Source: Nemertoderma westbladi (taxonomy: Eukaryota > Animalia > Xenacoelomorpha). Taken from it: a stretch of DNA of 53,120 bases. The notes below the pieces were generated by a model, which ran no database searches, was not told where the DNA came from, and worked only from the letters and a program-made list of their open reading frames with translations. The stretch lies in contig JAUCBJ010003994.1 in the NCBI GenBank assembly GCA_032718475.1, forward strand, positions 1 to 53,120, read 5' to 3'. How positions within the stretch are numbered: the first letter of the stretch is position 1; every line of letters starts with the position of its first letter. Shown piece after piece: positions 13,278 through 52,899 of the stretch. The position numbers and the translations under genes are program-made.

Positions 13278-14590
13278 CTATGATTAATTCTACATGATAA
13301 ATTCTATTAATTCTCTATTATTTTCACAAGAAAATGACAGAACATTCTGAACAAATGAACTAGGCCGGCCTACTTTTATTATATTATATTCTTTATTTCA
13401 GATTACAGAAAATCTATAGATGTTTATAATAGTTATTGCACAAACACAAATGGTATAAAGATATATGTAATTATCGAATTATAATAAAAATATAGGGTTT
13501 TGCAATTCGCTTATTCTGTATATGTGACGCATACTATTATTCACTGCATGTAAAATGTTGTTATTAGTAATGTTAATCCGATTAAATAAACTTGTTTAAA
13601 TTATACTTGTTTATAAACCTACTGTTACCAGTATTTAGTTATTCGCCTGCACTGACAGACAGCGAGCGAATTGATCCAGTTTAGAGATATTCTAGAATGG
13701 CAAAAGACATTGTTACCGTGGATACTAACTAAGACTGACTTAATTATTTATCAATCCACACTAATTTGTTTTGCAGCTTTGATAGTAAATTTTTGCTGAG
13801 TAATCCAATTTAGTAAATTTGGAGTAGTAGTAGTCGTCCATTTCTTTTTATTTGTAGGATAATATGAGGTTGCTCCTATAACAATTACCCTCTCCACTCC
13901 ATTTTTAGTATATTAAAGAAAGCAGTTTAGAGAAACAGATTTTGTTTTCGCAACATCTATCTGGCAGTCACTATTAAAGAGATATTTGGACTCAATCATT
14001 TGTTGAGAATCCACCAACTCGATCATCTTTTTTCAACTTTCCCTGTCACACTTTACAGTAGGGTGTAAAGTAAAATAGTATTTGATTGAAGGCTCCTCTA
14101 TCTACTATAGGGTGTGGTAAACAAGAATGAGATAGTCTCATTAATAAATTAATAATATATTAATAAAACTGATTTTTCAAATACTCGATTTATCTCAAAA
14201 AATCGATTTTTTTCTCGAAATTTCGACCCCCTGAGAGATTGCTCTAATATTTTCGATACTCTATAAAATAGCAAAATCTGACATTTCTATTGAAAATCTA
14301 AGGGATTGGCCGAAGTTCAAGTTCATGTTCGTTTTTGTTTTCGAAATTTCAACCCCCGGGACACATGTTCCACTATATACACTGCCCTAATATTTTGGAT
14401 ATTTCATTTATTACATTTTTTATTTTCATACATTACACATTTCTGGTGAAAAGCTAAGAGATTGGTAAAAGTTCATGATTTTCACAGCACCCTAATATAC
14501 ATAGAGTATAAGTGTTGTCAAGAATATAATTAATAGTAGCTCTTATAAAAACTTTACTAATGAATGCACTATTGTTTGTTAATACTCTAG

Positions 14591-21930: not shown

Positions 21931-22362
21931 TCCCCCCCCCCAAGCTTGCATTAATTAGGTCGCAGAATCTGATGTGCGAATTTCGCGAATTCCGCAAATG
22001 CCATGAATTTTGCAAATGTCAAAAATGTTGGCATTACAAGACCTTGGGTACACATAGACCAGACATTATTTACCAGCTAGTTTTTTTTACAATGATAATA
22101 TAAATTATTATTACATGACAGAAAATGTTCTAGAACATGTTAGATATCAATTAAGAAAAATATCAATTAAGGTTCTGGAACACATTTTTTTGTTCTAGAA
22201 ATTTTTTTTGAAAAAATTAAATAGTACAGGGAACGTTATACACAACCCATTAAAAAAAAATTTTGAATAAAAAATATATATAATTTATCTTATTTACTTT
22301 ACTCTATTTTTTAAAATAAAAAAATATAAATATTTACTAGCTACCCTGAGAAGATGCAGTTA

Positions 22363-23283
22363 CACCATGTCCCAGAATATAGTGTCGTAATTCAGTAACA
22401 CCCTCCCCCCCCTAATTTTTCTACAAATCTTAATGAGATTGCATGAAATTTGAAACAGAGATAGTTTCACCTCCCGACCACTGACTGGGTGAGCCAGAGT
22501 TTTATTTTTGCTTTCAATCTTTAGCTACAAGCGTTTAAAAGAAGTATCTCCAGCGATATAACACCAGTTACACCGGAGTTATTATTCTACCTTATAGCTA
22601 GCTGTTTGTTGGTACCAATGGAAAGCTGGCCATGCAAGGATTCCAAATATCTAACACAATTTGAATTTCGTTAAAAAATAGCTGAGATATGAGCGTTCAA
22701 ATGTTGCATGGTTTTGCAACGACGCGAGGCTATTTTACTCTATTTAATAAATGCATCATAGTCTGGAATATATTGTATATCCAAATACGTAGCTGGGCAA
22801 CGGTGCATTACATCTTTAATCATACTATTATGTAGCTATTCATACATTTAAAAAATGTTCCAGAATATGGTTTATTTATTAATAGAATAAAATAGCCTCG
22901 TGTCATTGCAAAACCATGCAACATTTGAACGCTCATATCTCAGCTATTTTTTAACGAAATTCAAATTGTGTTAGATATTTGGAATCCTTGCATGGCCAGC
23001 TTTCCATTGGTACCAACAAACAGCTATAAGGTAGAAGAATAACTGCGGTGTAACTGGTGCAATATCGGCGGAGATACTTTTTTTAAACGCTTAAGATTAG
23101 TATTAGTTAGAAGTAGCTAAAGATTGAAAGCAAAAATACAAATTCTGGCTCACCCAGTCAGTGGTCGGGAGGTGAAACTATCTCTGTTTCAAATTTCATG
23201 CAATCTCATTAAGATTTGTAGAAAAATTAGGGGGGGGGGGGGTGTGTCACTGAATTACGACACTATATTCTAGGACATGGGCG
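22363..23283. mobile_element. Foldback MITE with ~390-bp inverted arms, TA-flanked (Tc1/mariner-like)
   Basis: 22361-~22750 is the near-exact reverse complement of ~22880-23285; TA at both outer ends. Confidence 0.85.
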
Positions 23284-25884: not shown

Positions 25885-25948
25885 GGTTGCGCTTCTGTGT
25901 CTGAGACCCAGTACGCGGTAATCTCCGACACCTCATCAGCTGGACAAA
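25885..25948 (-). ncRNA. Hammerhead ribozyme-like motif, copy 2 (degenerate)
   Basis: Minus strand: CTGATGA-GGTGTC...GACACA-GAAG-CGCAAC; GAAA box mutated. Confidence 0.45.
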
Positions 25949-25969
25949 GGTTTACCCAAGGCCTATCTT

Positions 25970-28915
25970 TGGGGTTTGCCCCCTTAGGTATTTATTGCTG
26001 GTTACTGTTATATATTATTGGTTGGGTTTCCCCTTAGGTATTTCTTACCAGTTACTGTACTAGATTATTGGTTGGGTTCCCCCCTAGGTATTTATTACAG
26101 GTTACTGTTCTAGATTATTGGTTGGATTGGTGGTTGCCTTAGCCATTTCTTACCGGTTACTGTACTAGATTATTGGTTGGGTTGCCCCCTTAGCTATTTA
26201 TTACCAGTTACTGTACAAGATTATTGGTTGGGTTGGTTGCCTTAGCCATTTCTTACCGGATTACTGTACTAGATTATTGGTTGGGGTTCCCCCATAGGTA
26301 TTTATTACCGGTTACTGTACTAGATTTTTGGTTGGGTTTCCCCCTTAGGCATTTATTACCAGTTACTGTACTAGATTATTGGTTGGGTTGGTTGCCTTAG
26401 CCATTTCTTACCGGTTACTGTACTAGATTATTGGTTGGGGTTCCCCCCATAGGTATTTATTACCGGTTACTGTACTAGATTATTGGTTGGGTTTCCCCCT
26501 TAGGTATTTCTTACCAGTTACTGTACTAGATTATTGGTTGGGTTGGCTGCCTTAGCCATTTCTTACCGATTACTGTACTAGATTATTGGTTGGGTTTCCC
26601 CCTTAGGTATTTATTACCGGTTACTGTACTAGAGTATTGGTTGGTTTGCCCCATAAGGTATTTATTGCTGGTTACTGTTATATATTATTGGTGGGGTTCC
26701 CCTTAGGTATTTATTACCGGTTACTGTTCTAGATTATTGGTTGGGTTGCCCCCTTAGGTTATTTCTTACCAGTTACTGTACTAGATTATTGGTTGGGTTG
26801 CCCCCTTAGCTATTTATTACCAGTTACTGTACTAGATTATTGGTTGGGTTGGTTGCCTTAGCCATTTCTTACCGGTTACTGTACTAGATTATTGGTTGGG
26901 TTTCCCCCTTAGGTATTTATTACCGGTTACTGTACTAGAGTATTGGTTGGTTTGCCCCATAAGGTATTTATTGCTGGTTACTGTTATATATTATTGGTGG
27001 GGTTCCCCTTAGGTATTTATTACCGGTTACTGTACTAGATTATTGGTTGGGTTTCCCCCTTAGGTATTTATTACCGGTTACTGTTCTAGATTATTGGTTG
27101 GGTTGGTTGCCTTAGCCATTTCTTACCGGTTATTGTTCTAGATTATTGGTTGGGTTTCCCCCTTAGGTAATTATTACCGGTTACTTTACTAGATTATTGG
27201 TTGGGTTGCCCCCTTAGCTATTTATTACCGGTTACTGTACTAGATTATTGGTTGGGTTTCCCCCTTAGGCATTTATTACCGGTTACTGCACTAGAGTATT
27301 GGTTGGTTTGCCCCCTAGGTATTTATTACTGGTTACTGTTCTAGAGTATTGGTTGGTTTGCCCCCATAGGTATTTATTGCTGGTTACTGTTCTAGAGTAT
27401 TGGTTGGTTTGCCCCCATAGGTATTTATTGCTGGTTACTGTTATATATTATTGGTTGGGTTCCCCTTAGGTATTTATTACCGGTTACTGTACTAGATTAT
27501 TGGTTGGGTTCCCCCTTAGGTATTTATTACTAGTTACTGTACTAGATTATTGGTTGGGTTGCCCCCTTAGTTATTTCTTACCGGTTACTGTACTAGATTA
27601 TTGGTTGGGTTTCCCCCTTAGGTATTTATTACACGGTTACTGTACTAGATTATTGGTTGGGTTTCCCCATAGGTATTTATTACCGGTTACTGTACTAGAT
27701 TATTGGTTGGGTTTCCCCTTAGGTATTTATTACCGGTTACTGTACTAGATTATTGGTTGGGTTGCCCCCTTAGGTATTTATTACCGGTTACTCTACTAGA
27801 TTATTGGTTGGGTTTGCCCCTTAGGTATTTATTACTAGTTACTGTACTAGATTATTGGTTGGGTTGCCCCCTTAGGTATTTATTACCAGTTACTGTACTA
27901 TATTATTGGTTGGGTTTCCCCCTTAGTTATTTATTACCGGTTACTGTACTATATTATTGGTTGGGTTTCCCCCTTAGTTATTTATTACCGGTTACTGTAC
28001 TAGAGTATTGGTTGGTTTGCCCCATAAGGTATTTATTGCTGGTTACTGTTATATATTATTGGTGGGGTTCCCCTTAGGTATTTATTACCGGTTACTGTAT
28101 TAGATTATTGGTTGGGTTTCCCCCTTAGGTATTTATTACCGGTTACTGTTCTAGATTATTGGTTGGGTTGGTTGCCTTAGCCATTTCTTACCGGTTATTG
28201 TTCTAGAGTATTGGTTGGTTTGCCCCCATAGGTATTTGTTGCTGGTTACTGTTCTAGAGTATTGGTTGGTTTGCCCCCATAGGTATTTATTGCTGGTTAC
28301 TGTTATATATTATTGGTTGGGTTCCCCTTAGGTATTTATTACCGGTTACTGTACTAGATTATTGGTTGGGTTCCCCCTTAGGTATTTATTACAAGTTACT
28401 GTACTAGATTATTGGTTGGGTTGCCCCCTTAGTTATTTATTACCGGTTACTGCACTAGATTATTGGTTGGGTTGCCCCCTTAGGTATTTATTACCGGTTA
28501 CTCTACTAGATTATTGGTTGGGTTTCCCCCTTAGGTATTTATTACCGGTTACTGTACTATATTATTGGTTGGGTTTCCCCCTTAGTTATTTATTACCGGT
28601 TACTGTACTAGATTATTGGTTGGGTTGCCCCCTTAGGTATTTATTACCGGTTAATGTACTAGATTATTGGTTGGGTTTCCCCCTTAGGTATTTATTACCG
28701 GTTACTGTACTATATTATTGGTTGGGTTTCCCCCTTAGTTATTTATTACCGGTTACTGTACTAGATTATTGGTTGGGTTTCCCCCTTAGGTATTTATTAC
28801 CAGTTACTGTACTATATTATTGGTTGGGTTGGTTGCCTTAGCCATTTCTTACCGGATTACTGTACTATATTATTGGTTGGGTTTTCCCCTTAGGTATTTA
28901 TTACCGGTTACTGTA
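25970..28915. repeat. 51-bp tandem satellite, left arm
   Basis: Unit GGTTACTGTACTAGATTATTGGTTGGGTTTCCCCCTTAGGTATTTATTACC plus a 52-bp variant (...GGTTGCCTTAGCCATTTCTTACC). Confidence 0.98.
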
Positions 28916-29478
28916 TGTGACGGGATCCACCCAGGATCCCAGTTTATCCGGTTTCTAAACTACGCGTCGTCCCCGCCGTGTGTATGTGAAAAGGTGGAAA
29001 CAGTTATTGATCGTTGTATACAGTTCCAGGGTATAATAGTATAAGACAATAGTTGAATAATATAAGTGTACCGGTAAAATGATATGCAATGGTGACTGGA
29101 CAGAGATGACGGTATTTAGAGTTCCGGTACCGTCCTAACTAACTGACTTACTATAAGTGAATGAAATGATTACTGTATTGATAATATATATTGCACGGTT
29201 GGCCGCGTTGTACTACTCAACCGATGCCTCCCCCCCCCATTGGCTAATAACCCTGTTGTCGCCCTTTGCCTCCCCTGGAGGGTTTCCCTTCGCCCCTGTT
29301 GCTCTCTCTCTCTCAGGGGTGTAACCCCTGACCCCTGTTGTGCGTATGTCCTTTGGGGGTTTTCTTGTCCCCACTTTATTGGGGTGATACGAGGTTGATA
29401 TTGGATATCAACCTCGTGTTCCCAATATTGCTTAAAGCTCGCTTTGTGGGCTGGCTAGCGGAATTGAATACGGTAACA
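28916..29478 (-). repeat. 3' LTR (563 bp)
   Basis: tgtgacggg...ggtaaca; direct repeat of 41964-42534. Confidence 0.97.
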
Positions 29479-29487
29479 CTCCCCCCC
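29479..29487 (-). promoter_or_regulatory. Polypurine tract
   Basis: Minus strand GGGGGGGAG directly before the TGT of the 3' LTR. Confidence 0.9.
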
Positions 29488-30178: not shown

Positions 30179-32427
30179 CTAGCTCGTTCCACCAGCCTTT
30201 GGGAACCACCTCAAGTCTTTCCCTTTGTCGTCCCCCTCCCTGGGTCGTTTCCTGGTCACTGCCGCTCCTCTGGTCTTCTCTGCTTTCTGGCTTCTGACTC
30301 TCGCCGCCACCTCCTTACTGATCCCGGTCGTCGACTCCTTGGGTGCCGGTGTTATTAGCTCCCGGTATCGCTTCACGGGTGGCCCCTCCGAGTGGCCCTG
30401 TTGTCTCCCCCTGGTGGCGTCTCATAGGATCATCTTCATTGCCCGCGGCACATGCTCCGCCAAGAAATCCCTAAACTCTCCTCTACTCTGTGGCGTCCAC
30501 CTATCCAAATACCTCTGCGTATTTATCACTCCGGCATATGATGCCGCCGTCGCCACTTCCTGGTAGGTAAACGGAAGCCTCCGTTTGATAATCTCCATGT
30601 GAGCCTCCTGATTGATGTTAAAGAAGCCCCACCGGAACTCCTGGGCCTTCATACGTTGCAGAGTCATCGCCCCGACGTCGGCCCATTCCTCGAAGATCCT
30701 AAACTTCTCTTCGTCGTCCATCCAGTCACACTGGCGTCCGTAATGTCCCCGAAAGTTACACTTCGTACATCGGTTATGCAACCGTGGACACGCCCCCATC
30801 CTGTGGCTCGACTCGCGGCAATAGAGACAACTAGTCCCTTTCTGGAACCGGTACAAACAGCTCCTTTCCTGGTGGGTCTGTCTCCCACAGTAGTCACAGC
30901 CGAGCACCAATGTCTCCCGCCCCACGTCGTCTTTCGTCCCAAGCGATCTCCGCGGTCTGTGGAGTCGCTGGTAAGCGAACTTCCGGACGTTAGTGTCCCT
31001 ATCTACGTCAATCTCCTCGCCCCTCTCGGGCATCGTCTCCCCGAATACTACCCGTGGTGCCGTCCCTGGTTGCTCGCCCAACCTGATAGTGCTCCCCGCG
31101 AAATCCATCGCCGGCTCCTCGTGCACCCAGGGCCACTTGCCGGGTCTATCCCAGAAGGCCCTCGCCCCACTGGCCGTCACCACCCTCCCGCCAACCCAGT
31201 CTGTGTCTGAGTGGCCGATCCTCCCGATGGGCGGCATCTCTCCGAACTCGTCGTCGTCCTCGTCCTCCTCTGGGAGTGGCTCCAACCCCGGTATCCCGGT
31301 GGACCCACTATGTCCCTTCCCGCCCGTAGCTCTCCATCCCTCTAGCTCCCCTAGCCTCCTTAGCGGCTGGTCGCCCTCGGCGCCCGCTGGTATGGGCGTC
31401 GCTTGCAATCCCGACGTCGACTGTTTCGGTGACCCCACTGTCCATCCCAATTCTCGCCATAGAGACTCCCCCGAACTCCCTGATGAAGTCCAACAAAGTT
31501 CGTCCAAGCCCGCCTGTTCCTCGAAGCCGTAGCTATCATTATCCAGTCCTCCTGTAGGATATATCGCTTCTGATATACCTTTATAGCTCCTCTCCGGAAT
31601 TGATATACCTCTTGTCTCCCTGGCCTCGCTCCCCACTTCAGCGAGTTCGCCAAGTCTGCTCTGTACTCCTCTCTGAACTTGCCCCAGTCCATCGGTTTGT
31701 GACACACGAGCCCCATTAACTGGCCCATCGCCACTGCCCCGCAATGTCCTGTGTTCTCTACTAGTCCCAATCCGTCCGGCGCTGTCATAGCCATGTAGAC
31801 CGTCTGCATATCCAGAAGGTTGGGGGTGTCCGGACCGATGATTCTCTCCGCGTCGTCGCGAATCGCCGATCCCACTTTCGTCGTTGACTTCTCTCTCACT
31901 AGTGCTTGCACCGCCTTCGGCAACCGGTTTAACTTCGGCCCATCCTTCTTTCCATACATTCCTAGATCGAATAGGAATATATCCCCATTTGGCGCGGCCA
32001 AATGTAGGAGTATGGTTCTGGCTGATGCCGCCGATCCTCTCCTCGAACCCTCCTCGTCTTCCATGGTCCCCTCATCGTCCAGGACCATATACCCTTCTCT
32101 GCTGACGGACTCTACGAACCTCTTCCAATCCTTCTTCGGTGGATCCCTTGCGTACTTCGGAATCCCGAACTTCGCTTCGTCTCCTTTTATCACGTAGTGG
32201 AAATGCTCGAAGATCGCGTTGTCCAGCGACGGCGTCCCGTAGGTCCCGACCAGCCGCTGTTCGTGCACCTCCCTGAAATGGTCCTGTAGCGCTCGCGCTG
32301 CGTGACCCCTCTTTAACCGTTCGTAGTATCCCCTCGTTCTCTCTTCCGGATGCCTCTTGGTGAAATCCACCAGTATCTCCTTTCCTCCTAGCTCCGCCAT
32401 TCTCTTTCGCACAAGTTTGCTTGCCAT
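30179..32427 (-). CDS. Extra ORF (frameshifted): DEDDy 3'-5' exonuclease (WRN/EXD2-like), linker, 3x CCHC zinc knuckle, basic tail
   Basis: ExoI VLDDEG; LLHLAAPNGDIFLFDL; ExoII LPKAVQALV...KVGSAIRDDAERI; ExoIII-like YQKRYILQED. Knuckles CDYCGRQTHQERSC, CLYCRESSHRMGAC, CTKCNFRGHYGRQC. Pieces lie in ORFs 31360-32430, 31308-31496, 30422-31744 and 30179-30376; their fusion is inferred. Confidence 0.8.
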
Positions 32428-32934
32428 CACTCGGTCGCTCGATCACTTTTTGCCCGATCACTCACCCGTTGGGTGGTGCCTTACCAAGGCGCAATAGGGT
32501 GAGTGATAGGTTAAGGTGGTTTATCTCAGTTCTATGGCCTATCTCCCTCTGGATTACTAAGTTAATTAGCCTATTTACACTGCTTGATATCTGTAGCTAC
32601 CAAATTGTACCTAAATTGTAAATTTGTCAGTTACTTTTATTATGTTCCAGAATTTTCTTGCTACTGTTACCATAATTTGTCAATTTCTTAGCCCTATCCT
32701 ATTTTAATATTTTTAATCTAATTCAATCCTACTATCGTGCTGCTACTTACTATTGCCTATGGATTATTCTATTTCATAATCCACATTCTGGCCTATTCTG
32801 TGGGCTTGTGCAGTACAACAGTATGCATCGCGTGGCCTACACGATTTATCCAGCTGTACTCATATGCCCCCCTCTCGCTACTAACTAGTAACTAATGTCT
32901 ATACTATATATATATCCCTCTACCTCTTACTCTT

Positions 32935-33496: not shown

Positions 33497-36400
33497 TCAA
33501 GGTGCCCCCTCTAGTAGACAGCATTTCCCTACAGCCCTCCTGTAGGTCTTTCTGTCTTTCGCACCTATCTTTCCACCTATTCGCACTTCTACCGATCGGA
33601 CTCTTCCGTCCTCATCGGAGTAAGTGCCCACAACTCTCGCCAACCGCCATTGGTTGTTGATGATGGTATCGTCCGTGACGATCACCAGATCACCCTCCTT
33701 TAACTCTCTGTTCGTGTTCCTCCACTTACTTCTTCTGTGTAGTGTGGGCAGATATTCCTCGACCCACCTCCTCCAGTACTCTGCGCTTATCGCCTTAGCG
33801 ACTTTCCAACTCTGGCGGGAGTGTATGTCATCTAGGTCTACACCCCGCATGTCGATTGTCGCTGGCCTTTCCATTAGAAGGTGACTGCGCGTCAGCACGT
33901 CTATTGACTCAGGGTCATCATTCTCTGGATATAGCTGTCTGTTATTAATGATACCCTCACACTTTGCCAGTACTGTCCTTAGTACGTCCTCTGTAACCAT
34001 GTGGGTGTTCATCAGCTTCGTCATCAGACGTTTCGAACTACCCACTAATCTCTCGACGTATCCTAGGGTATGCGGAGCATACGGCGTCCTCCTCTCCCAC
34101 TTTACTTGTCGCCTTCTCATGGCCGCCCTGACTTCCTCCCCTTCCAGGATATCCAAGGCCTCTGCCATCTCGTTCTCCGCCCCCACAAAGTTGGTCCCGC
34201 TGTCAGAATACATTACTGCGATCGTCCCACCTTTGTGGTCTCTAAATCTTTCTAAAGCATTAATGAATGCTGATGCGGTTGCATCTTGGGCGAGTTCTAT
34301 TCCTACCGCCCGCGTGTTGTTACATACGAAGATGATACCGTAGCGTTTCTCCGTGTGCCGCATCACCTTAATCTTTATCGGCCCGAACATATCCACACCG
34401 CAATGCGTAAATGGCGGGTCGTGCTGTCTTACTCTACTGGCCGGTAGTGGCGTCATTTCCTGTATGGCCCGTTCCTTCTTCGCTCGTCGGCAGCTCTGGC
34501 ACTGCCCCACTACCGCCTTTACCTTCTTCCTCAACTGTTTGACCCAAAAGGTCCTCCGTATCTCCGTGAGGGTTCGGTTGGTGCCCCCGTGCAATATTGA
34601 TTTGTGGGAGTCCCACATAATCTGGTGGACTATCGGCGATCCTGTGGGGATGATGATGGGCTTCGGTGGTACGACGATACTGTTGTTGTATCCCACCCGA
34701 GAGTTCATTACTAGGATCCCGTCGTCATTAAGTTGTGGTGACAGCGTGATCAGCTCGCTGTCCCGCCGGAGATGCTGTTGTTTACCGACGCGTTCCACCT
34801 CGTCGCCGTAGTTCTTCCTCTGCTCATAGCGGATGACTGCTTTGGCCGCTCCTTCCAGATCTATTGTCATTCTAATCTTCAAGTCTTTGCCAACTCCCTT
34901 GAGGAAATTCCCGAAGGCTCTCCAGTACGCCACTAACTTCTTGGTCTTGTACCAACTAGAACTGTAGCTAAGGAGTTTATCCGTCGGGTTATCGCACAGT
35001 TCTCCTGGTTTTGGTTGCACGCCCTTAATCTCCCTCACCATCTGGGAGTATATCTCCTCTCCCTCTGAATCTCCCTCTTCTCCTTCTGACACCACTTCTC
35101 CTGAGCCCGGGTCCACCTTTCTCATCGGCGGCCAGGCCTCCCTATCGCTCAGAAACTGTGGCCCGTGTTGCCACAATACTTCCTTCTTCAAGAAAGTGTG
35201 ACATACCACGCCCCTCGATAACAAGTCCGCTGGGTTCTCGTCCGTTGGGCAGTAGTGCCACCTTTCTAGTTCTGTGGTCGCCCTTATTTCGTCCACTCTA
35301 TTTGCGACGAATATACGGTATCTCGTCCTTTCATTGTGTAGCCAACCGAGCACTACCATGGAATCCGTCCAGTAGTGTGTTTCCACTATGTTGGGAATAG
35401 CGTCCACTAAGTAGGCTGTGGCCCTAACTCCTAATCTCGCAGCTGTCAACTCAAGTTTCGGAACTGATGCTGAGTCTGGTGGCGTCGACTTCGCTTTACT
35501 GAATGCGAGTCTGGGCTTGTGAGCCCCCTCTCGTTGTACTAAGTAGAGTGCCGCTCCATATGCCTCTAATGACGCATCGGAGAACATATGTAGATCCAGA
35601 TTCGTCATGTCCCCATCCGGGAAATATACACGTGGCATGCTGTATGTTCCCATCTGCTCTAAACTCTCTGTCCACTTGTTCCACTGCTTACTAATCTCTT
35701 CTGGGACCTCTGTGTCCCACTCATCCTTTAATTTGTATACTCTCTTGAGTATCTGTTTCCCCGTGACTAGTAATGGGGATGCTAGGCCTAGGGGATCGTA
35801 TATCCTCGCTATGTATGACACATAGCCCCTCTTTGTGTGGATACCTTCTCCCTCCTGACTCAATTGGTATTTTAACTCGTCTGTCTCTCTGTTCCACACG
35901 ATTCCCAGTGCCTTCTGTTGAGACTCCATCCTCTTGTTCGCCATGTCCTGCCCCTTGGCTGTTGTGGGATTATCCATGGTCGATCCTGGTCTCTCATCTT
36001 TTATCGCCTCGATAAATTCCTTCGAACTGGATTGGAATTTGGTTAGGTTGAAGCCGGATCCTTTAAGGATGTCGCGAACCTCGCGCCCTATGTCCAGTAG
36101 CTCCTTAACCGTATTTCCAGACTCCATCCCGTCGTCTACGTAGAAGCCGTGTCGAATCATATCGACGGCTCTAGTACTGTATTTATCTTCCTTTCCCTTT
36201 ACTGTGTCTCTTACAGCCATAGTCGTCGTAAACGAAGACGACTTGGCTCCCATATTCTGTACTATCATCTTATACATTGGTATGGTCGACGGTTCCTCAT
36301 CGCCGTCGTACCATAGGAAGCGTTGGCTGTCGCTATCCTCTTTCGTTACACGGACTTGGTTGAACATGCCTTCGATGTCGCAGGTGAAAGCGTGTTTGCC

Positions 36401-36745
36401 ATTCCTGAATCTGAGTAGGACCTCGATCCCTGAGTTGTAGATGTTGGGACCCTCCAGCAGATAATCGTTTAGGCATTTCCCGTTGGTCTTGGCTGATGCG
36501 TCAACTACCATCCGCAGTTTACCTTTCTTCGGGTCTATAGCCACGTGGAGTGGCAGGTAATAGGTCCTGTCCGTGTTTGGCTCGTCGACCGGTAACTCCA
36601 CGGCCCATCCTTTCTCGACATATTTTCTAATTGTCTTGTGGATGTACTCATTCTTTTCGGGGCTCCGTTTTAACATCTGCTTTAACTTGCGAAGCCTCGT
36701 AAGTACCATCCCTTTGTTGTCGGGTAACGGTAGCTTCGGTAGCTT
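33497..36745 (-). CDS. pol: BEL/Pao Pol: reverse transcriptase, RNase H, integrase
   Basis: YYLPLH, LRMVVDAS, CDIEGMFNQV, FYVDD; LHMFSDAS, PKLEL, YWTDS, NPADLLSRG; HHCC, GVDMFGP, SDSGTNF, ERLVG; C-terminal YWRRWVEEYLPTL. Open for 1070 aa. Confidence 0.97.
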   Translation of the reverse strand, partial: KLPKLPLPDNKGMVLTRLRKLKQMLKRSPEKNEYIHKTIRKYVEKGWAVELPVDEPNTDRTYYLPLHVAIDPKKGKLRMVVDASAKTNGKCLNDYLLEGPNIYNSGIEVLLRFRNGKHAFTCDIEGMFNQVRVTKEDSDSQRFLWYDGDEEPSTIPMYKMIVQNMGAKSSSFTTTMAVRDTVKGKEDKYSTRAVDMIRHGFYVDDGMESGNTVKELLDIGREVRDILKGSGFNLTKFQSSSKEFIEAIKDERPGSTMDNPTTAKGQDMANKRMESQQKALGIVWNRETDELKYQLSQEGEGIHTKRGYVSYIARIYDPLGLASPLLVTGKQILKRVYKLKDEWDTEVPEEISKQWNKWTESLEQMGTYSMPRVYFPDGDMTNLDLHMFSDASLEAYGAALYLVQREGAHKPRLAFSKAKSTPPDSASVPKLELTAARLGVRATAYLVDAIPNIVETHYWTDSMVVLGWLHNERTRYRIFVANRVDEIRATTELERWHYCPTDENPADLLSRGVVCHTFLKKEVLWQHGPQFLSDREAWPPMRKVDPGSGEVVSEGEEGDSEGEEIYSQMVREIKGVQPKPGELCDNPTDKLLSYSSSWYKTKKLVAYWRAFGNFLKGVGKDLKIRMTIDLEGAAKAVIRYEQRKNYGDEVERVGKQQHLRRDSELITLSPQLNDDGILVMNSRVGYNNSIVVPPKPIIIPTGSPIVHQIMWDSHKSILHGGTNRTLTEIRRTFWVKQLRKKVKAVVGQCQSCRRAKKERAIQEMTPLPASRVRQHDPPFTHCGVDMFGPIKIKVMRHTEKRYGIIFVCNNTRAVGIELAQDATASAFINALERFRDHKGGTIAVMYSDSGTNFVGAENEMAEALDILEGEEVRAAMRRRQVKWERRTPYAPHTLGYVERLVGSSKRLMTKLMNTHMVTEDVLRTVLAKCEGIINNRQLYPENDDPESIDVLTRSHLLMERPATIDMRGVDLDDIHSRQSWKVAKAISAEYWRRWVEEYLPTLHRRSKWRNTNRELKEGDLVIVTDDTIINNQWRLARVVGTYSDEDGRVRSVEVRIGGKIGAKDRKTYRRAVGKCCLLEGAP

Positions 36746-38765
36746 TCATACCATCCCTATGGTATACCGCCCCTCATCGCATGTCATCGATTCCTTTACA
36801 CTTTGTAAAGCCTGCTTGTCTTCTACCGAGGTTCCAACCCCGGTCTCCTTTAATCCCTCAAAATCCTGCCTGAGCAGTCTCCTGAGCTGCTCCTCTGCTC
36901 CCTCATCCCCCATTTCTCGCATAGTTCCCGCGAACATGCATCCTGATGTCTCCGACATCCTAAATGGTATCTTACTCTTGATTGGGCCACTCAGTGTCCA
37001 CCCGAATGGTGTCAATATCGCCACCGGGTCACATTGCCTGTCTTCGCCGAAGACCGTTTGCATTCTCTCGTGGGCCGTCGGGCAGTCCATTCCTACTATG
37101 ATGGATACCTTCCTAACATCCACCTCTGGGATTGAGAAGTCGATACTGTCCAGGAATCTGTATTGTTCGACCTCGATGTTGGTTGGCCGCCTGGCGTTAA
37201 TATTTATCGACTCTATCACCTGGATGGGGTCGATGGTCGCCCCATAATCGCATCCCGGTGCTACCGCTGCTATCGCGCACCGTCCAGTTCTCATCTCCAG
37301 AACCTCATCTTTGCTGGATATGGTTGTTACCGCCATTCTACTTGGCCTCGTTCTCAATCCTATCTCTTCAGCCACCCAATCCTCAACTAAGGTGAAGGCT
37401 GCACCACTGTCGACCAGCATCAGTGTGGTTACTGATCGGTTGCCTTTGCCGATTATCCTTACTGGTACTACCCCTAATAGTACCGTCCCTCTCTTTTTTG
37501 CTACTACGGTGCTTGTTGCCATCGTTTGTCCTTTACTCTGACCGAACTTAATTGGCGTTTCTCTGCATTGTCTAGCCCTGTGTCCACTCATCACACATTG
37601 CGAGCAGATCTCATTTCTCGCCGCGTATTCTACCTGATCTTCTCTGGGTAGCACCTGCCAGTACCTGCAGTTCATGGTCCGATGAAGCGCATTTGAATGT
37701 AGCTGGCATTTGCTCTTTGGATCGTAGCCATCCTTATACAGTGCATTGTGTATCGCAGTTGCATTTGTACCAAAGTCCTTACTGTTCTTATTGTTTGGAT
37801 TCGGCCTACTGGGCGTACTGGGGTTATGTTTGTCCATGTTGTTATTTTTCCCCTGTCCGCTCCATGATGTCGTCTTACCCCCGGCTACCTGTGGACTGGT
37901 AGTCCCCTGCGTTGCTGCGTACGGCAGTGACTGTCTGAGCTTTGGCAATGCGCCGACGCGTTATGCTCTGGTTTCGGCCTTTGGTAATCGGTCTTTGATC
38001 CCTTTCCCAGGCTATCCTCGCTGTAGACTGGGTCCGTTATAAGTTCAGCTTCATAGTTTAAGAAGCTCGACATCTCTTCTAAACCCGGTTCCGCACCCTT
38101 CCTATCTCGAGTGGAGAAAGCGATTTTCCTCCACTTATTGCGCAGCCACATCAGAAGTGCCTGGGCTATCGTAGTGATGTTGTTGGACGCATTGAGTTCG
38201 TATGGCGCATCCAATGTCTTTAGCACAATTAGCGCCTTCTCGACTTTGTAAGCAAATGTCTTTATGCTAACGGGGTTATCCTGTAGGCCACCCGATGTTA
38301 TACCTTCAGGGTCTGCCGGATGATCTTGGCCGGGTGCCCGTATTCCCTGTCTAACGCCCGCCATGCCGTCGTGAAGCCACCCTCGATACCCTGGTATTGC
38401 CTCACGATGTCGTATGCTGGGCCCCCTGTATATACTTGCAGATACTTTAGGCACTCCGCCTGCGTCAAATTTTTTGTTAATATTTCGTTACTATACATGC
38501 GCCGAAACTGTAGGTATTCTTCCGGCCTACTCCCATCGAATTTGAATGGTTCCACGGGTGGTAACTCGATCCTTGTTTTTAGTGCATCGATTAACGTGGC
38601 CATCCCCATCGCTTGCGCTTCCAATGGGTTCGATGGATGCTGCATAGGTTCTCCCGTTGGGTGCGGTCCGTTCGTCCTGTTTGCCGCTTTTCTCTGACTT
38701 GGATATATCATAGGGGGTAGCGGCCCCCTCAATATTTCTGTGTCGCATGATCTATTCTCGTCCAA
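36746..38765 (-). CDS. gag: BEL/Pao Gag core, zinc knuckles and aspartic protease (frameshifted)
   Basis: PFKFDG..EEYLQF...YLQVYTGGPA...AWRALDREYG (DUF1759-like); CQLH...H...C and CSQCVMSGHRARQC; LVDSGA; TPFGWTLSGP. Confidence 0.9.
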
Positions 38766-41700
38766 GGGGTTCGATGTTCTTACTCCTACTGAGGTATATT
38801 GTTGATATTGTGATGGGGGAATGTCACCCTGCCCCCCCCCCCCCCCCCCCCACCGGTATGTTTGGTACTGGGGTTGATGTTAATATATTGGAGCCCATGC
38901 ATCTATCCGCAATAATCCCCCCTTCCCCTGGGTATATGTTATGTCCTTGCATGCTGTAGTCATACTGCTGTGCTGGTACCGGTATAGGCCTATCTACTTC
39001 TGGCCTCCTTGCCGGTATATACTCCGTGACTTCCGGGTTTAATCCCGCTGTTCGCGCTATCCTATCGCCTATATTATCTCCCTCAGCATAGCCTATGGTA
39101 TGTGCAGTAAGGCCTACAGTATGTCCTGCAGTCTGTATGTGTCGCTCGGGATCGAAGTTTATCCTTCTCGAATAATCCTCGATAATTAATTAATAATCCC
39201 CGACCCTCGGATAATTCTCAATCGGTAGGTATATCCCGTCGGGAAGTTTCTCTTCGACCCCCTCTACTGCTTTCGTTCTCGTGCCGGTACATCCCGTACC
39301 CCTTTCTCTGCGCGCAATACAAGAAAGTCAGGTCGCGTTCCTCCGGGGCGACGGCAATCTCCCGAAGTTCGACCCCGCTGACTCTCCGTCTCCACCTCTA
39401 CTACCGACGGCTCGCTATCCGTCCTCGCTCTCCTGTCATTCGCGGCGACACTTTTTCTACTCTCTTCTCTTCTTCTCTTTTCAGTGCAGTATTCCGGCTC
39501 GTGAGATCTCTCGTCGACCTCCCGGTTAAACTCCACTGTTCTTCTTCCCTCTTCTGATTGGGCTCGACGCTTCGTCCGCCCTCTCGTGACGTCAACCTGC
39601 CTCTCTCTGCTCGACTGCACGCCGCTGGGGATACTCGCAATCCCCCTATCACTCTCCGTCGCCGGGTGTTGCGGTTTACCTATCTCGGCCCGCGCATTAT
39701 CCGTCGACGCCTGTGGGACACTCTCTGCCCCCCCCCCTTTTCGCCGCTAACTCGCTGTTGTGGGGCTCCTATAGCCCCCCCCCCCCCCCACTCGCCACAT
39801 CTAACTTCACTATCTCTTACTTCGCTACTATACCCCTCTCTAGCCGACACATCAACCCTACTGCGGCTGGGTCTATTCACCCCCGCCTCTCCCTCTGCTA
39901 CTGTGTGGCCTACCAGGCCCTCTACTTCCTGCCTACTAACTACGTGGCCTACCAGGCCCTCGCTAGGTTTACCCAACCCAGCCACTCCCTGCCTACTAAC
40001 TACGTGGCCTACCAGGCCCTCTCCGGGTTGGCTCAACCCCGCCACTTCCGGCCTACTAACTAAGTGGCCTACCAGGCCCTCTTCGGGTTGGCTCAACACC
40101 GCAACTTCCTGCCTACTAACTGCACGGCCTACCAGGCCCTCATCTGCCGGGTTATACATGTCTGATACGTTCACGTTAATAGCACCACTAATATTGTCAT
40201 TGGTTAGATCAATTAAATCCTCTAACTCGATTAAGTTACTTTGTGCGCCCAAATTAGAAACGGAATTATTTTGCTCGTTCGAAATAAGATTATTTGAATT
40301 ATTTTGTAAATTCAGACTTATATTTAAATTATTTGAATTATTTTGTAAATTCGGACTTAGATTTAAATTATTTGAATTATTTTCTACATTAATATTAGAA
40401 TCACTCGGATTTAAATTACTACTGTCGGGCAAAATATTATTTCCTGCAATGAAAGTTTGATTAGAATTATCTAGTACGGTACTATTAATATTAACGTTGT
40501 CTACTGTATCATTATTATTACCCCCCCCCCCCCCCCCCCGCCCGTACGGTTACACCAGTCTCGGGTCTGTCGTGCGGTCCCTGTAAGTGGGGTATTAATA
40601 AATGTTTCTTCGACCCTTGGCTCCTCGAAAGCACTCGAGCCAGCGTCACTCTCTGACAGCCTCATCTGGGCCATTCTTAGTCTGCGCTTCTGTTTGGTTT
40701 GGTACTGAATAAGCCCCCCTAGGCAGGCATGTAAACCATCCCGCACACGCTTCCCCTATGCTGCTCTCTCCCGACTCTCCCGCGCGCTCTGCTCGGCCAA
40801 ATCCCTCTCTCTCTCAACTCTCTCCATTCGTTTCGCCTCCCTTGCCACCTCACGCTCTTTACATTCTGCCTCGCGCTCTTTTCGTTCTGCCTCGCGCTCT
40901 TTACGTTCACACTCCTCTCTCGCCTCACGCCCTTCTTGTTCCTTCCTCCCTATTTCCTCACACTCCCTAAAGCTTCTTGTGGCTTTCTCAGCCCTCTCTC
41001 CGGTCTCTCTAACCAGTTCCATTTCTTTCTCTAATAGCACTCTCCCCTCCTCTAACTGTCTCTCTACTTCTCTCTGGTCTTGCGCTATCAGATCAAGATG
41101 ACACGCCGCATTTATTTCCCTCACCCGTCTTTCTTTTACGGAGGATGTAGCAGACTTATCGGTTATGACGGATTCCCTCCGCCTTCCCGTCCTACTAACC
41201 CCCCCCCCCTTTTTCCGGAACTTTCTCCGACCGACGAGACCGAATCCTCGGGGTTAACCTCGGATTCGCCCTCCTGCGGTTTCCTCCAACCCACTAATTT
41301 TATTCCCCGGGCATCGACTAAGTATGGCCCTACGTACACTATGCTAGGTTCCATACCCCTACATTCCCATAGTTCAAACAGTTCGGTGGCAACCCCTCTC
41401 GCTCTCTCGCTGGCTAGTTCTCCCTGCCCAAAACGCTTTAGATAGTCAAAGTGTTCGTTCGACTCACCTAGTCTTTTCTTCAAGTTTACATCATTTATCT
41501 GGGCCCCCTCTTTGGCCTCCTTAAGTAGTTTCCGGGTCGCGTTGTAGGCCCGTCGAAGTTGATAGCTGACCCCGACGTCCTCGTCGCCGACATCTCCTCT
41601 ATCTCTCCGGGTCCGGCGTCGTACCGGCGGCCCCACCGTCGCCGTTCCGGTGGGCCGTCCATCGCCCTCGGCCTGTGGCTGGCCGGCGACACTGGCACGT

Positions 41701-41895
41701 CGACCGCCGTCGTGTGTCGACTCGTCTCTCTCTCCTCCCGACTCACCCTCTAGTTGTAGACGGCTCCCCTCGCATTGGATCACCGGGTCACCCGTTGGCG
41801 ATGGGTCCGGTGTCGTGGGCCTATACCGTCGTGTCGCGGATCGTTAGATCGCTGTCCGGGGTCCGCGGCGGTGTCGTTTCTCCCGTTTGACTCAT
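38766..41895 (-). pseudogene. Long low-complexity N-terminal extension of Gag (fragmented)
   Basis: First ATG after the 5' LTR at 41895 (MSQTGETTPP); Glu/Arg coiled coil 40756-41124; Asn-rich 13-aa repeats; 20-aa EGLVGHVVSRQEV repeats. Several breaks lie near G homopolymers. Confidence 0.6.
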
Positions 41896-41954
41896 TTCTC
41901 TGGTAGCTGGCAGTCAGTTTGGATTCAATTACTGTCTTAGGATGGCAGCTCGGT

Positions 41955-41963
41955 TCTAAATAC
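41955..41963 (-). promoter_or_regulatory. Non-tRNA primer-binding position (GTATTTAGA)
   Basis: Directly follows the CA end of the 5' LTR, lacks TGG, and is complementary to LTR 42169-42177. Confidence 0.65.
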
Positions 41964-42534
41964 TGTGACGGGATCTACCCAGGATCCCGGTTTATCCGGT
42001 TTCTAAACTACGCGTCGTCCCCGCCGTGTGTATGTGAAAAGGTGAAACAGTTATTGATCGTTGTATACAGTTCCAGGGTATAATAGTATAAGACAAGATA
42101 AGACAATAGTTGAATAATATAAGTGTACCGGTAAAATGATATGCAATGATGACTGGACGGAGATGACGGTATTTAGAGTTCCGGTACTGTCCTAACTAAC
42201 TGACTTACTATAAGTGAATGAAATGATTACTGTATTGATAATATATATTGCACGGTTGGCCGCGTTGTACTACTCAACCGATGCCTCCCCCCCCCATTGG
42301 CTAATAACCCTGTTGTCGCCCTTTGCCTCCCCTGGAGGGTTTCCCTTCGACCCTGTTGCTCTCTCTCTCTCAGGGGTGTAACCCCTGACCCCTGTTGTGC
42401 GTATGTCCTCTGGGGTTTTCTTGTCCCCACTTTATTGGGGTGTTACGAGGTTGATATTGGATATCAACCTCGTGTTCCCAATATTGCTTAAAGCTCGCTT
42501 TGTGGGCTGGCTAGCGGAATTGAATACGCTAACA
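41964..42534 (-). repeat. 5' LTR (571 bp)
   Basis: Direct repeat of 28916-29478; by eye about 10 substitutions and a few small indels. Confidence 0.97.
42216..42248 (-). promoter_or_regulatory. Putative LTR core promoter (TATA box and initiator)
   Basis: Minus strand TATATATT with Inr-like TCATTC about 28 nt downstream; CCAAT about 55 nt upstream. Confidence 0.5.
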
Positions 42535-45500
42535 CTGTACTAGATTATTGGTTGGGTTTTCCCCTTAGTTATTTAAAACTGGTTACTGTTCTAGTTTATT
42601 GGTTGGGTTGGCTGCCTTAGCCATTTCTTACCTGTTAATGTTCTAGATTATTGGTTGGGTTTTCCCCTTAGGTATTTATTACCGGTTACTGTACTAGATT
42701 ATTGGTTGGGTTTTCCCCTTAGTTATTTAAAACTGGTTACTGTACTAGATTATCGGTTGGGTTTCCCCCTTAGGTATTTATTACCAGTTACTGTACTAGA
42801 TTATTGGTTGGGTTGCCCCATTAGCTATTTATTACCAGTTACTGTAATAGATTATTGGTTGGGTTGGCTGCCTTAGCCATTTCTTACCGGTTATTTTTCT
42901 AGATTATTGGTTTGGTTTTCCCCTTAGGTATTTATTACCGGTTACTGTACTAGATTATTGGTTGGGTTTTCCCCTTAGTTATTTAAAACTGGTTACTGTA
43001 CTAGATTATTGGTTGGGTTTTCCCCTTAGTTATTTAAAACTGGTTACTGTACTAGATTATTGGTTGGGTTGGCTGCCTTAGCCATTTCTTACCTGTTAAT
43101 GTTCTAGATTATTGGTTGGGTTTTCCCCTTAGGTATTTATTACCGGTTACTGTACTAGATTATTGGTTGGGTTTTTTTCCCCTTAGGTATTTATTACTGG
43201 TTACTGTACTAGATTATTGGTTGGGTTGGCTGCCTTAGCCATTTCTTACCGGTTACTGTACTAGATTATTGGTTGGGTTTTCCCCTTAGGTATTTATTAC
43301 CGGTTACTGTACTATATTATTGGTTGGGTTCCCCCCTTAGGTATTTATTACCGGTTACTGTACTAGATTATTGGATGGGTTTTCCCCTTAGGTATTTATT
43401 ACCGGTTACTGTACTATATTATTGGTTGGGTTCCCCCCTTAGGTATTTATTACCGGTTACTGTACTAGATTATTGGATGGGTTTTCCCCTTAGGTATTTA
43501 TTACCGGTTACTGTACTATATTAATGGTTGGGTTCCCCCCTTAGGTATTTATTACCGGTTACTGTACTAGATTATTGGATGGGTTTTCCCCTTAGGTATT
43601 TATTACCGGTTACTGTACTATATTAATGGTTGGGTTCCCCCCTTAGGTATTTATTACCGGTTACTGTACTAGATTATTGGATGGGTTTTCCCCTTAGGTA
43701 TTTATTACCGGTTACTGTACTATATTAATGGTTGGGTTCCCCCCTTAGGTATTTATTACCGGTTACTGTACTAGATTATTGGATGGGTTTTCCCCTTAGG
43801 TATTTATTACCGGTTACTGTACTAGATTATTGGTTGGGTTTTCCCCTTAGGTATTTATTACTGGTTACTGTACTAGATTATTGGTTGGGTTGGCTGCCTT
43901 AGCCATTTCTTACCGGTTACTGTACTAGATTATTGGTTGGGTTTTCCCCTTAGGTATTTATTACCGGTTACTGTACTAGATTATTGGATGGGTTTTCCCC
44001 TTAGGTATTTATTACCGGTTACTGTACTAGATTATTGGTTGGGTTTTCCCCTTAGGTATTTATTACCGGTTACTGTACTAGATTATTGGATGGGTTTTCC
44101 CCTTAGGTATTTATTACCGGTTACTGTACTAGATTATTGGTTGGGTTTTCCCCTTAGGTATTTATTACCGGTTACTGTACTATATTAATGGTTGGGTTCC
44201 CCCCTTAGGTATTTATTACCGGTTACTGTACTAGATTATTGGATGGGTTTTCCCCTTAGGTATTTATTACCGGTTACTGTACTAGATTATTGGTTGGGTT
44301 TTCCCCTTAGGTATTTATTACTGGTTACTGTACTAGATTATTGGTTGGGTTGGCTGCCTTAGCCATTTCTTACCGGTTACTGTACTAGATTATTGGTTGG
44401 GTTTTCCCCTTAGGTATTTATTACCGGTTACTGTACTAGATTATTGGTTGGGTTTTCCCCTTAGGTATTTATTACCGGTTACTGTACTAGATTATTGGTT
44501 GGGTTGGCTGCCTTAGCCATTTCTTACCGGTTACTGTACTAGATTATTGGTTGGGTTTTCCCCTTAGGTATTTATTACCGGTTACTGTACTAGATTATTG
44601 GTTGGGTTTTCCCCTTAGGTATTTATTACCGGTTACTGTACTAGATTATTGGTTGGGTTTTCCCCTTAGGTATTTATTACCGGTTACTGTACTATATTAA
44701 TGGTTGGGTTTTCCCCTTAGGTATTTATTACCGGTTACTGTACTAGATTATTGGTTGGGTTTTCCCCTTAGGTATTTATTACTGGTTACTGTACTAGATT
44801 ATTGGTTGGGTTGGCTGCCTTAGCCATTTCTTACCGGTTACTGTACTAGATTATTGGTTGGGTTTTCCCCTTAGGTATTTATTACCGGTTACTGTACTAG
44901 ATTATTGGTTGGGTTTTCCCCTTAGGTATTTATTACCGGTTACTGTACTAGATTATTGGTTGGGTTGGCTGCCTTAGCCATTTCTTACCGGTTACTGTAC
45001 TAGATTATTGGTTGGGTTTTCCCCTTAGGTATTTATTACCGGTTACTGTACTAGATTATTGGTTGGGTTTTCCCCTTAGGTATTTATTACCGGTTACTGT
45101 ACTAGATTATTGGTTGGGTTTTCCCCTTAGGTATTTATTACCGGTTACTGTACTAGATTATTGGTTGGGTTTTCCCCTTAGGTATTTATTACCGGTTACT
45201 GTACTAGATTATTGGTTGGGTTGGCTGCCTTAGCCATTTCTTACCGGTTACTGTACTAGATTATTGGTTGGGTTTTCCCCTTAGGTATTTATTACCGGTT
45301 ACTGTACTAGATTATTGGTTGGGTTTTCCCCTTAGGTATTTATTACCGGTTACTGTACTAGATTATTGGATGGGTTTTCCCCTTAGGTATTTATTACCGG
45401 TTACTGTACTAGATTATTGGTTGGGTTTTCCCCTTAGGTATTTATTACTGGTTACTGTACTAGATTATTGGTTGGGTTGGCTGCCTTAGCCATTTCTTAC

Positions 45501-50672: not shown

Positions 50673-51694
50673 GAAGCTAAGATAATAGCAATTAATTAGT
50701 TAATTAAATTGATTACGGTAAAAACAGCACTTTCAACCTGCCTTTTAAAGGAAATTCATTATTTTACAGTATAAGATTTAAATAATTATACTTAAAAATT
50801 ATACAGATGTAATCCACATACCCCATTCTATTATAGTTTTTAATTAGTTCAAGTGATTTGCTTTAATAATTGTGTCTTTAATTGATCTAAAGTATTAAAA
50901 CGGCATAAAAAATTGATACTCATTAAACACTGCTCATTTATTGGTTAACATCCAAGTTGGCTCGGTGCTGGTACACAGGATTGGATGGATGTGTGTGTAG
51001 AACAGCCAGTTGCTCTTCAATGGGAATGCGAATGTAGGTAACCACATGTGTACAGGCAGGTAGACAGATTGGCCATAGCTAGCTAACCAGATGGAAATCT
51101 GAATTCCCTACTATTCAGTCTACTATCGCCACCTTCAAGGCAGAACCCCCTAAGTCGATTTTTGTAGTTCTGAGATAATCAATAAAAACTGTTTATTTTT
51201 TAGATGGGATTCTCATTACTGTCAAGCAATACAATAACAACAATAAATAATAACATATTAATCTGACCAAACCAATAATCTCTGTTATTACCAATTGAGG
51301 GAAAGGATCAGGTTACAGAGATGGTTTTTCTAACCAAAACAATAAACGATGTTGTGGGAGACATGAACATGACATGAAGGGGAGACAGGAATGGGGGGGG
51401 GGTGTAACATGAATGGTGGGGGTAGGAGGTAAATTGAAAATATGGGGGTATAACAGCCGGGGGGGGGGGGGGCGTAGCAGCAAAACAGGCAGCTGAACAA
51501 CGTAACCAAACGTGCTTTCAATTAATTTCCATCTAATTAGGTAAATGGAATGTATACAAAGCGGCGCTTCTTTGATCGAAGCTCACGTTCCCATGGTAGT
51601 ATTTTTTCAGTATATCAGTTTATCACTTATTATCTGATCGTCTGATGGCAAGCATCACCATCGCTCATATTAATATCCATTGGCAAGCATTCAC

Positions 51695-52325
51695 CCCTAT
51701 TAATGTTTGTGCCCCTGATTAATGTGTGTCCCTCATTAATGTTTGTGTCCCTCATTAATGTTTGTGTACCTCATTAATGTTTGTGTCCCTCATTAATGTT
51801 TGTGTCCCTCATTAATGATTGTATCCCTCATTAATGTTTGTGTCCCTCATTAATTAATTGTGTCCCTCATAAATGTTTGTGTCCCTCATTAATGTTTGTC
51901 TCCCTGATTACTGTGTGTTCCTTATTAATGCTTGTGTCCCTCGTTAATGTCTGTGCCCCTTATTAATGTGTGTCCCTCATTAATGTGTGTCCCACATTAA
52001 TGTTTGTGTCCCTCGTTAATGTTTGTGCCCCTTATTAATGTGTGTCCCTCATTCAATGTGTGTCCATCATTAATATGTGTCCCTCATTAATGTTTGTGAC
52101 CCTGATTAATATCTGTGTCCCTTATTAATGTATGTGCCCTTGATTAATGTGTGTCCCTAATTAATGTTTTTGTCCCTTATTAATGTTTGTACCACTTAAT
52201 TAATGTGTGTCCCTGATTAATGTTTGTACCACTTAATGTGTGTCCCTGATTAATGTTTGTGTCCCTGATAAATGTTTGTATCCCTGATTAATGTTTGTGT
52301 TCCCTCCTCAATAATGTTTGTGTCA
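51695..52325. repeat. 17-19-bp minisatellite
   Basis: Unit CATTAATGTTTGTGTCCCT, about 33 copies. Confidence 0.95.
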
Positions 52326-52899
52326 TGGCCGCAGTACAAACCAGTATATGAATGAGAAATTACGGTGATTTAAGGGGTTTTACAGGTTGTTATTTCTGAT
52401 TTAAGGGGTTTTGCCAGGTAGACTGAATTTCATATACTTGAATTTACGGTGTTTTGCAAGCCAATTATTGACTTGTGGGGTTCTGCCTCGAAGTGGGCAT
52501 CAGTTACGGGGAACAGTCTTTGGCTTATAACTCAAAAATGGCTGGTAGAAAAGCTTCGGGGTTCTGCCAAACGAAAAAGCCGATATAGAATTACCCAAAA
52601 AGTCAAAAACATGAAAATCGAAAAAAATTTACTTAGGGGGTTCTGCCTTGAAGATGACGATTTATTATGTTATTGTGTGTTAGACAGATCTCATTTAATA
52701 AATGTCAGTCAATAACATTTTACCACTGCAGAAGGCATATATCCATACTTGTTTTTCCTCATAACTATTAGGCTTATTATTTTTTGATGGGATTTCTGTG
52801 TAGTTGAATTGTCTAAGTTTTTACACTGAGGAATTAACAGAGGGTACTGGTATTAAATTAATTATTTGAATATCATTACTGCATCCACTGCATTTAGTA

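Follow-up and report, generated by a model that had tools for sequence, protein, structure and literature searches.

We analysed a 53,120-nt stretch of the genome of the xenacoelomorph Nemertoderma westbladi (contig JAUCBJ010003994.1, hereafter the window), which carries a 13.6-kb BEL/Pao retrotransposon on its minus strand. Where a tRNA primer-binding site (PBS) would be expected, this element has a sequence complementary to its own long terminal repeat (LTR). It is very likely that the primer for minus-strand synthesis is an element-derived RNA ending in ...AC, acting in cis or in trans, and it is probable that this RNA is the 5' end of the element's own transcript, folded back onto the PBS and cut at position 42169 as in Tf1. 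Element RNA ending in ...AC is the best candidate because a primer must end at the LTR end and because the PBS of related families follows each family's own LTR RNA, even across a splice junction. Coordinates refer to the window, and features of the element lie on the minus strand.

A primer-binding position complementary to the element's own LTR

The primer-binding position, GTATTTAGA (41955..41963), abuts the LTR end and is the exact reverse complement of 42177-42169 in the 5' LTR. This LTR block (42169..42177) is where the 3' end of the primer is predicted, with ...AC at 42169. Alignment with the 3' LTR and the TACAG target-site duplication (TSD) place the LTR end at 41964; therefore the 9-bp duplex is flush with the LTR terminus and no TGG or other tRNA PBS follows the 5' LTR, as a first-pass annotation of this DNA had proposed. 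The three pairs of blocks listed there are all exact, namely 41955-41963 with 42169-42177 (9 bp), 41937-41942 with 42190-42195 (6 bp) and 41912-41919 with 42198-42205 (8 bp). Short helices of 3 and 4 bp lie between the first two, and the LTR blocks able to lengthen the duplex are 42181-83, 42186-89, 42190-95 and 42198-205, with leader partners at 41951-53, 41946-49, 41937-42 and 41912-19. The duplex of the 3' LTR copy is slightly stronger (-33.8 kcal/mol). ARAGORN found no tRNA in the window. An intron junction was sought within the window's own primer block; neither a junction nor a spliced match was found, and so the element is not of the splice-junction type described below. A perfect donor motif, GTAAGT, is present at 42203-42208 (minus strand), just upstream of the pairing blocks, and its use there would excise the primer block, not build it.

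The match could be a product of chance or the relic of a local duplication, the tRNA PBS having been lost or having decayed in this copy. The 9-mer is AT-rich, the gag and protease frames are broken, and U5 also resembles the PBS, which means that a local duplication has occurred. However, only 24 of 10,000 LTRs shuffled by dinucleotide showed a flush 9-nt complement, and when offsets of 0-6 nt and splicing were permitted, a complement appeared in 7 of 1,000 (p about 0.002-0.007 for the core). When the first 9 leader bases were held and the remaining leader was shuffled, the extended duplex (-30.6 kcal/mol) was reached by 15 of 2,000 shuffles, whose mean was -19.4 ± 3.7 kcal/mol (p about 0.008). 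The LTRs are merely 1.6% diverged, and the same self-complementary design starting with GT was found in 9 of 10 independently bounded elements. Chance or a relic is therefore a very improbable explanation, and one that the tests on two-copy elements and on splice junctions appear to have largely refuted.

Family-specific complements and putative splice-junction primers in relatives

We retrieved 79 loci from metagenome contigs with an alignment of the window Pol and 62 of the 120 protein matches listed; viral contigs yielded no relatives. In nine of these loci and in the window, the 3' end of the LTR was fixed by two LTR copies, independent of any pairing. Nine of these ten elements carry a complement of 9-12 nt to their own LTR, beginning 0-4 nt past the LTR end, and every sequence is different. 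The tenth, L064, has a TGG PBS of the tRNA type and a complement score of 4, and it is the only one of the loci that matched tRNA-type PBS motifs. When leaders and LTRs were swapped between elements under the same rules, a score of 9 was reached in 3 of 90 combinations and a score of 10 in none. The covariation that the first-pass annotation had proposed as a check was thus found, each family's different PBS being matched by its own LTR. The self-complementary PBS is a trait of a broad BEL/Pao group and not peculiar to this element.

In five of the nine complement-bearing elements, the full match was obtained only after removal of a GT-AG intron of 77-186 nt from the LTR. The 79 loci comprise 23 of this splice-junction type (20 without 3 duplicates), 9 with contiguous complements of 9-12 nt (8 without 1 duplicate) and 1 of the tRNA type; the other 46 went unscored, in most cases because the LTR end or half of the LTR is missing from the contig. 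Most scorable members of the group are thus predicted to build the complement across a splice junction. The 20 non-duplicate loci, 2 of which were identified by eye, have GTAAGT-like donors and pyrimidine-rich YAG acceptors. In these, 4-7 primer bases follow the acceptor, and the match continues for 3-10 more bases (mean 5.85) before the donor, as compared with a mean of 0.7 into the unspliced intron end and of 0.59 for swapped donors (at least 4 in 8 of 380). Since donors were picked for the best match, a swap test with equal freedom is the fair control. Under equally liberal searching, at least 10 matching bases were found in 26 of 28 loci, which had been selected for matching, and in 43 of 756 swaps, some of them between families with a common PBS; at this swap rate (5.7%) only few such matches would be expected among the 79 loci. 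The independent cases are fewer than 20, because one PBS is common to L008, L037 and L049 and another to L028 and L048. In 15 of the 20 loci an A[AT]TAAA hexamer lies 12-99 nt downstream of the acceptor, a placement that would leave R for strand transfer. In a tree of RT-RNase H from 91 sequences, arbitrarily rooted on L064 with no true outgroup, the spliced and contiguous types are interspersed. Two leaders contain tandem repeats of PBS-like sequence (L025, 1066-1170; L027, 122-170).

Past a conserved GT (AT in 3 of 28), the PBS varies by family, and the predicted primer 3' end opposite this GT is ...AC in nearly all of them. One fixed host primer cannot explain a PBS that is specific to each family. 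It is nevertheless conceivable that the complement forms a structural or regulatory helix, acting in packaging, dimerisation or a translation switch, and that the primer is an RNA of the host, for example a fragment from within a tRNA. The two alternative partners of the R block look switch-like, half-tRNA priming is known in copia lineages, and our tRNA search was confined to the window. Such a helix would have to be one that changes by family, always follows its own LTR even across splice junctions, and ends 0-6 nt from the LTR terminus, the point at which any primer has to stop. A search of 41850-42300 against Rfam gave no match, although this is a weak test for a match so short. We regard this explanation as improbable, if less so than chance.

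Observations against self-priming in cis

On the balance of the points above, namely the lack of a tRNA PBS, a complement not attributable to chance and the covariation, the proposal of Tf1-like self-priming in the first-pass annotation stands in part. The folding of the RNA does not agree with it, and neither do several other observations. In the RNAfold test that the annotation had proposed, the PBS duplex had a probability of 0.02, and forcing the annotated pairs was 4.8 kcal/mol worse. Missed in the first pass was a near-copy of the PBS in U5 (42011-41996) which, with an adjoining strand (42025-42013), makes up the segment 41996..42025 and pairs in the predicted equilibrium fold with 42184-42156; within this pairing, 42184-42169 is bound by U5 42011-41996 instead of by the PBS. 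The R:U5 pairing dominated in 28 of 30 fold settings with varied start, end and temperature, and the probability of the PBS helix exceeded 0.2 in 2 of 30. The folding energy of the whole region is unremarkable (z = -0.84). Of 7 intron-less relatives, 4 have the duplex as their dominant fold (0.93-0.98) and 3 fold otherwise; for the extended helix, only 1 of 8 such relatives reaches significance.

Other points on this side concern the size of the core, the transcription signals and the position of the element among its relatives. The perfect core of 9 bp is shorter than the 11 bases of Tf1 and falls below the rule of Neumann et al. (PMC6317226), which asks for 10 bp or more of LTR complement beginning 0-5 nt past the LTR; a complement of at least 10 bp is present in 8 of the 9 other two-copy elements when splicing is permitted. 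Transcription is predicted to start ~40 nt upstream of the core, which is not the case in Tf1, and a TATA-like motif precedes the donor in just 2 of 20 relatives. No canonical poly(A) signal was found downstream of the primer block, the only AATAAA of the LTR being at 42436, upstream of the predicted promoter. Among the spliced and contiguous types of the tree, the window RT has a long, weakly supported branch (0.69/0.43), and the evidence from relatives is hence transferred by analogy. The element is the intron-less, long-branch case of the group.

Variation in the host also bears on this question. The window was compared with four sets of DNA contigs, which come from two samples at most. The LTR is present at very high depth, and coverage drops in the leader. 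Among the unphased variants listed, those at R-block positions 42171, 42172 and 42174 reach 23-81% of contig depth; matching changes are seen at the U5 partners 42005 and 42007 and not in the thinly covered PBS. The unphased frequencies are 59-81% at 42172 and 45-58% at 42007, and 23-34% at 42174 and 20-26% at 42005, hinting at R:U5 covariation in the host contigs. Because the PBS is thinly covered and the contigs are too short for R and PBS to be phased, the covariation of the PBS with the LTR is one demonstrated between families. In a few contigs, related LTRs seem to share the GT but to be followed from there by a different sequence.

An element-derived primer acting in trans would avoid the competing helix. 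A short R transcript, ending at the poly(A) site of the 5' LTR and spliced in intron-bearing families, or a transcript of a solo LTR would anneal to the PBS of the unspliced genomic RNA and be cut or trimmed to ...AC, while the U5 near-copy would occupy the genome's own R block. This would account for the persistence of introns in both LTR copies even though the primer needs splicing. The short R transcript would be free of U5, whose competition prevails over the cis duplex, and for isolated duplexes the predicted pairing of the R block with the leader (-30.6 kcal/mol) is stronger than that with U5 (-17.6 kcal/mol). The abundance of the LTR in host contigs and an extra ORF resembling an exonuclease, described below, are also consistent with such a primer. 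On the other hand, this model is drawn from DNA sequence, the exonuclease-like ORF is without a match in the related loci, and Tf1, the tested precedent, works in cis. Of 27 relatives, only 6 have a U5 near-copy that exceeds chance, and a general U5 decoy was accordingly rejected. We consider priming in trans a less likely arrangement than priming in cis, albeit the most credible of the alternatives.

Transcription signals and structure of the element

The predicted promoter (42216..42300) consists of a CCAAT at 42300, TATATA at 42247 and an Inr-like TCATTC, with +1 near 42219. The TATA and Inr motifs named by the first-pass annotation are present, and their function is a prediction from motifs. 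A start site at the duplex itself, 30 nt after a TATA, was rejected since it fits only 1-2 of 20 relatives. Scoring of the interval from the primer block to the U5 near-copy gave a single poly(A)-like hexamer, AATAAC (42050..42055). The AATAAA in the predicted U3 (42426-42441, minus strand) is looped out by a short G/C stem, and the 3' LTR would need read-through of it.

The element is bounded by a 5' LTR of 571 nt (41964..42534, ending in ...GTCACA at 41964) and a 3' LTR of 563 nt (28916..29478), both TG...CA, which differ by 9 substitutions in 561 aligned bases and 3 indels. The TSD (TACAG; 42535..42539, second copy 28911-28915) flanks both LTRs; a TSD of 5 bp is typical of BEL/Pao. A polypurine tract (PPT; 29479..29487) directly precedes the 3' LTR. 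The internal region contains a gag remnant with DUF1759, split over several frames (37885..38879), a stop-terminated open reading frame (ORF) with a Cys/His motif and an aspartic protease (36746..37960), and an open pol ORF of 1082 aa (33497..36745) with RT, Peptidase_A17 (PF05380), integrase H2C2 and DUF5641. The element is a BEL/Pao member because its internal ORFs match these domains in the order PR-RT-RH-IN. The best-matching database proteins all carry PF05380; the 120 listed are 35-39% identical, and the hosts named among them are fish, echinoderms, cnidarians, a snail and a barnacle.

Two extra ORFs lie between pol and the 3' LTR on the minus strand. The ORF at 31360-32442 resembles a WRN-type DEDDy 3'-5' exonuclease (ESM Atlas 0.95, with 186 of 256 shared features), and PF01612 is found on 38% of the members of the matched Atlas cluster. 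This resemblance was not confirmed by Pfam (no match), by a PDB sequence search (0 matches) or by a single-sequence fold, which had a pLDDT of 31.5 and was not used; a representative search with the extra ORF returned 2 unrelated TPR proteins. The ORF at 30422-32071 has three CCHC-like knuckles at its C-terminal end. Neither had a match in any of the 79 related loci.

The insertion site is a 51-bp tandem array (about 25900-28915 and from 42535 onward), and the window also has arrays of 44, 22 and 19 bp. Three overlapping ORFs of 184-370 aa are present at 19802-22018 (minus strand), two of which were scanned and gave no Pfam match. Long inverted-repeat pairs at 22365-23280, 10080-14499 and 51125-52661 are probably remnants of miniature inverted-repeat or other DNA transposons.

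Discussion

If the element primes itself in cis, transcription would start near 42219, and the 5' RNA would fold back on the PBS and be cut after ...UCUAAAUAC (42169), giving a primer of about 51 nt. Gag or RT would have to resolve the competing R:U5 helix, and RNase H, as in Tf1, or another nuclease would free the 3'-OH. RT would then copy U5 and the rest of R before jumping to the 3' R. The window copy would represent the form that has no intron and relies on a long (~45-nt) imperfect helix. In Tf1 the primer is kept and serves as template for a new PBS. If the PBS of BEL/Pao elements were likewise re-copied from the primer in every cycle, each family's PBS would track its own LTR, even across a splice junction.

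A broader scheme can be proposed, though we hold it to be rather doubtful as a whole. A large aquatic branch of BEL/Pao may have dropped tRNA priming for a primer assembled by the spliceosome from an LTR intron, with splicing as the switch for reverse transcription, and this primer may exist as a short spliced RNA of its own that works in trans. In the intron-less lineage of the window, the place of the junction would be taken by a long helix between R and leader together with a decoy in U5, and a captured 3'-5' exonuclease may trim the primer.

If self-priming is correct, it operates in a widespread BEL/Pao branch whose hosts are fish, echinoderms, cnidarians, molluscs and crustaceans, and this branch would join Tf1/sushi and TAR copia as a third independent case. 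In most scorable families splicing would make the primer, tying reverse transcription to the spliceosome. Self-priming would also account for the failure of PBS-based LTR finders to detect such elements, which would be out of reach of silencing by tRNA fragments.

Comparison with known systems

The ICTV description of Belpaoviridae gives an 18-nt PBS for tRNA-Arg or tRNA-Gly, a genome of 4-10 kb and priming by host tRNA, and considers replication poorly understood (PMC8742986). The element shares with this family the LTRs, the PPT, the PR-RT-RH-IN order of gag-pol and the position of an extra 3' ORF, but it is without a tRNA PBS and is 13.6 kb long. Of the triple Cys-His box expected in Gag, one Cys/His cluster is visible in this element, whose gag is broken. 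The tRNA-Arg/Gly PBS is absent from the window element, and a PBS of the tRNA type occurs in 1 of the 10 two-copy elements (L064). In our reading, the tRNA PBS is a described trait, while the grouping of Belpaoviridae itself rests on Pol phylogeny.

Elements without a canonical PBS have been reported elsewhere. The fungal GalEa copia elements and the bivalve biv-TRIM resemble the window element in this respect, and a role in priming has been proposed for a hairpin that they form close to the end of the LTR; however, their inverted repeats lie inside the internal region and do not join the PBS position to the LTR (PMC6934838). No statement on the PBS or tRNA was found by term search in the available parts of the Sinbad paper (PMC554778), of de la Chaux and Wagner (PMC3118150) and of a mollusc survey (PMC6238403), and those of PMC4558846 and PMC10886601 held nothing relevant. 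Self-priming or a spliced primer in BEL/Pao was not found in the literature at the level of titles and abstract openings; subscription papers, Repbase Reports, GyDB or supplements could hold one.

Self-priming is known in Tf1/sushi, Tj1, Tcn1 and TAR copia elements (PMC4600332, PMC6317226, PMC6934838, PMC3601003). In the TAR lineage of Ty1/copia (Houba, Osr-1), as in the window, it was predicted outside gypsy from complementarity between LTR and PBS; these are plant copia elements, and the available part of the source does not mention a splice-junction primer (PMC6317226). Tf1 RNA pairs with the PBS through its first 11 bases, and the cut by RNase H falls between bases 11 and 12 (PMC7175516). 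Tf1 and Tf2 of S. pombe, Tj1 of S. japonicus and the Tf1/sushi and Tcn1 chromoviruses are like the window element in that the PBS complements their own 5' LTR RNA and not a tRNA (PMC7175516, PMC4600332, PMC6317226). The window Pol carries domains of BEL/Pao and not of Ty3/gypsy chromoviruses, and the element is therefore Tf1-like in its proposed working and not a member of Tf1/sushi. It differs from this Ty3/gypsy group in its 9-bp core with a ~45-nt imperfect extension, its predicted start ~40 nt upstream and its predicted strong U5 competitor, and in that the putative primer is split by an intron in most scorable BEL/Pao relatives. The feature is thus real, and would amount to Tf1-like self-priming within BEL/Pao, with a primer predicted to arise by splicing in most of the relatives that could be scored and a form without intron, but with a long helix, in the window.
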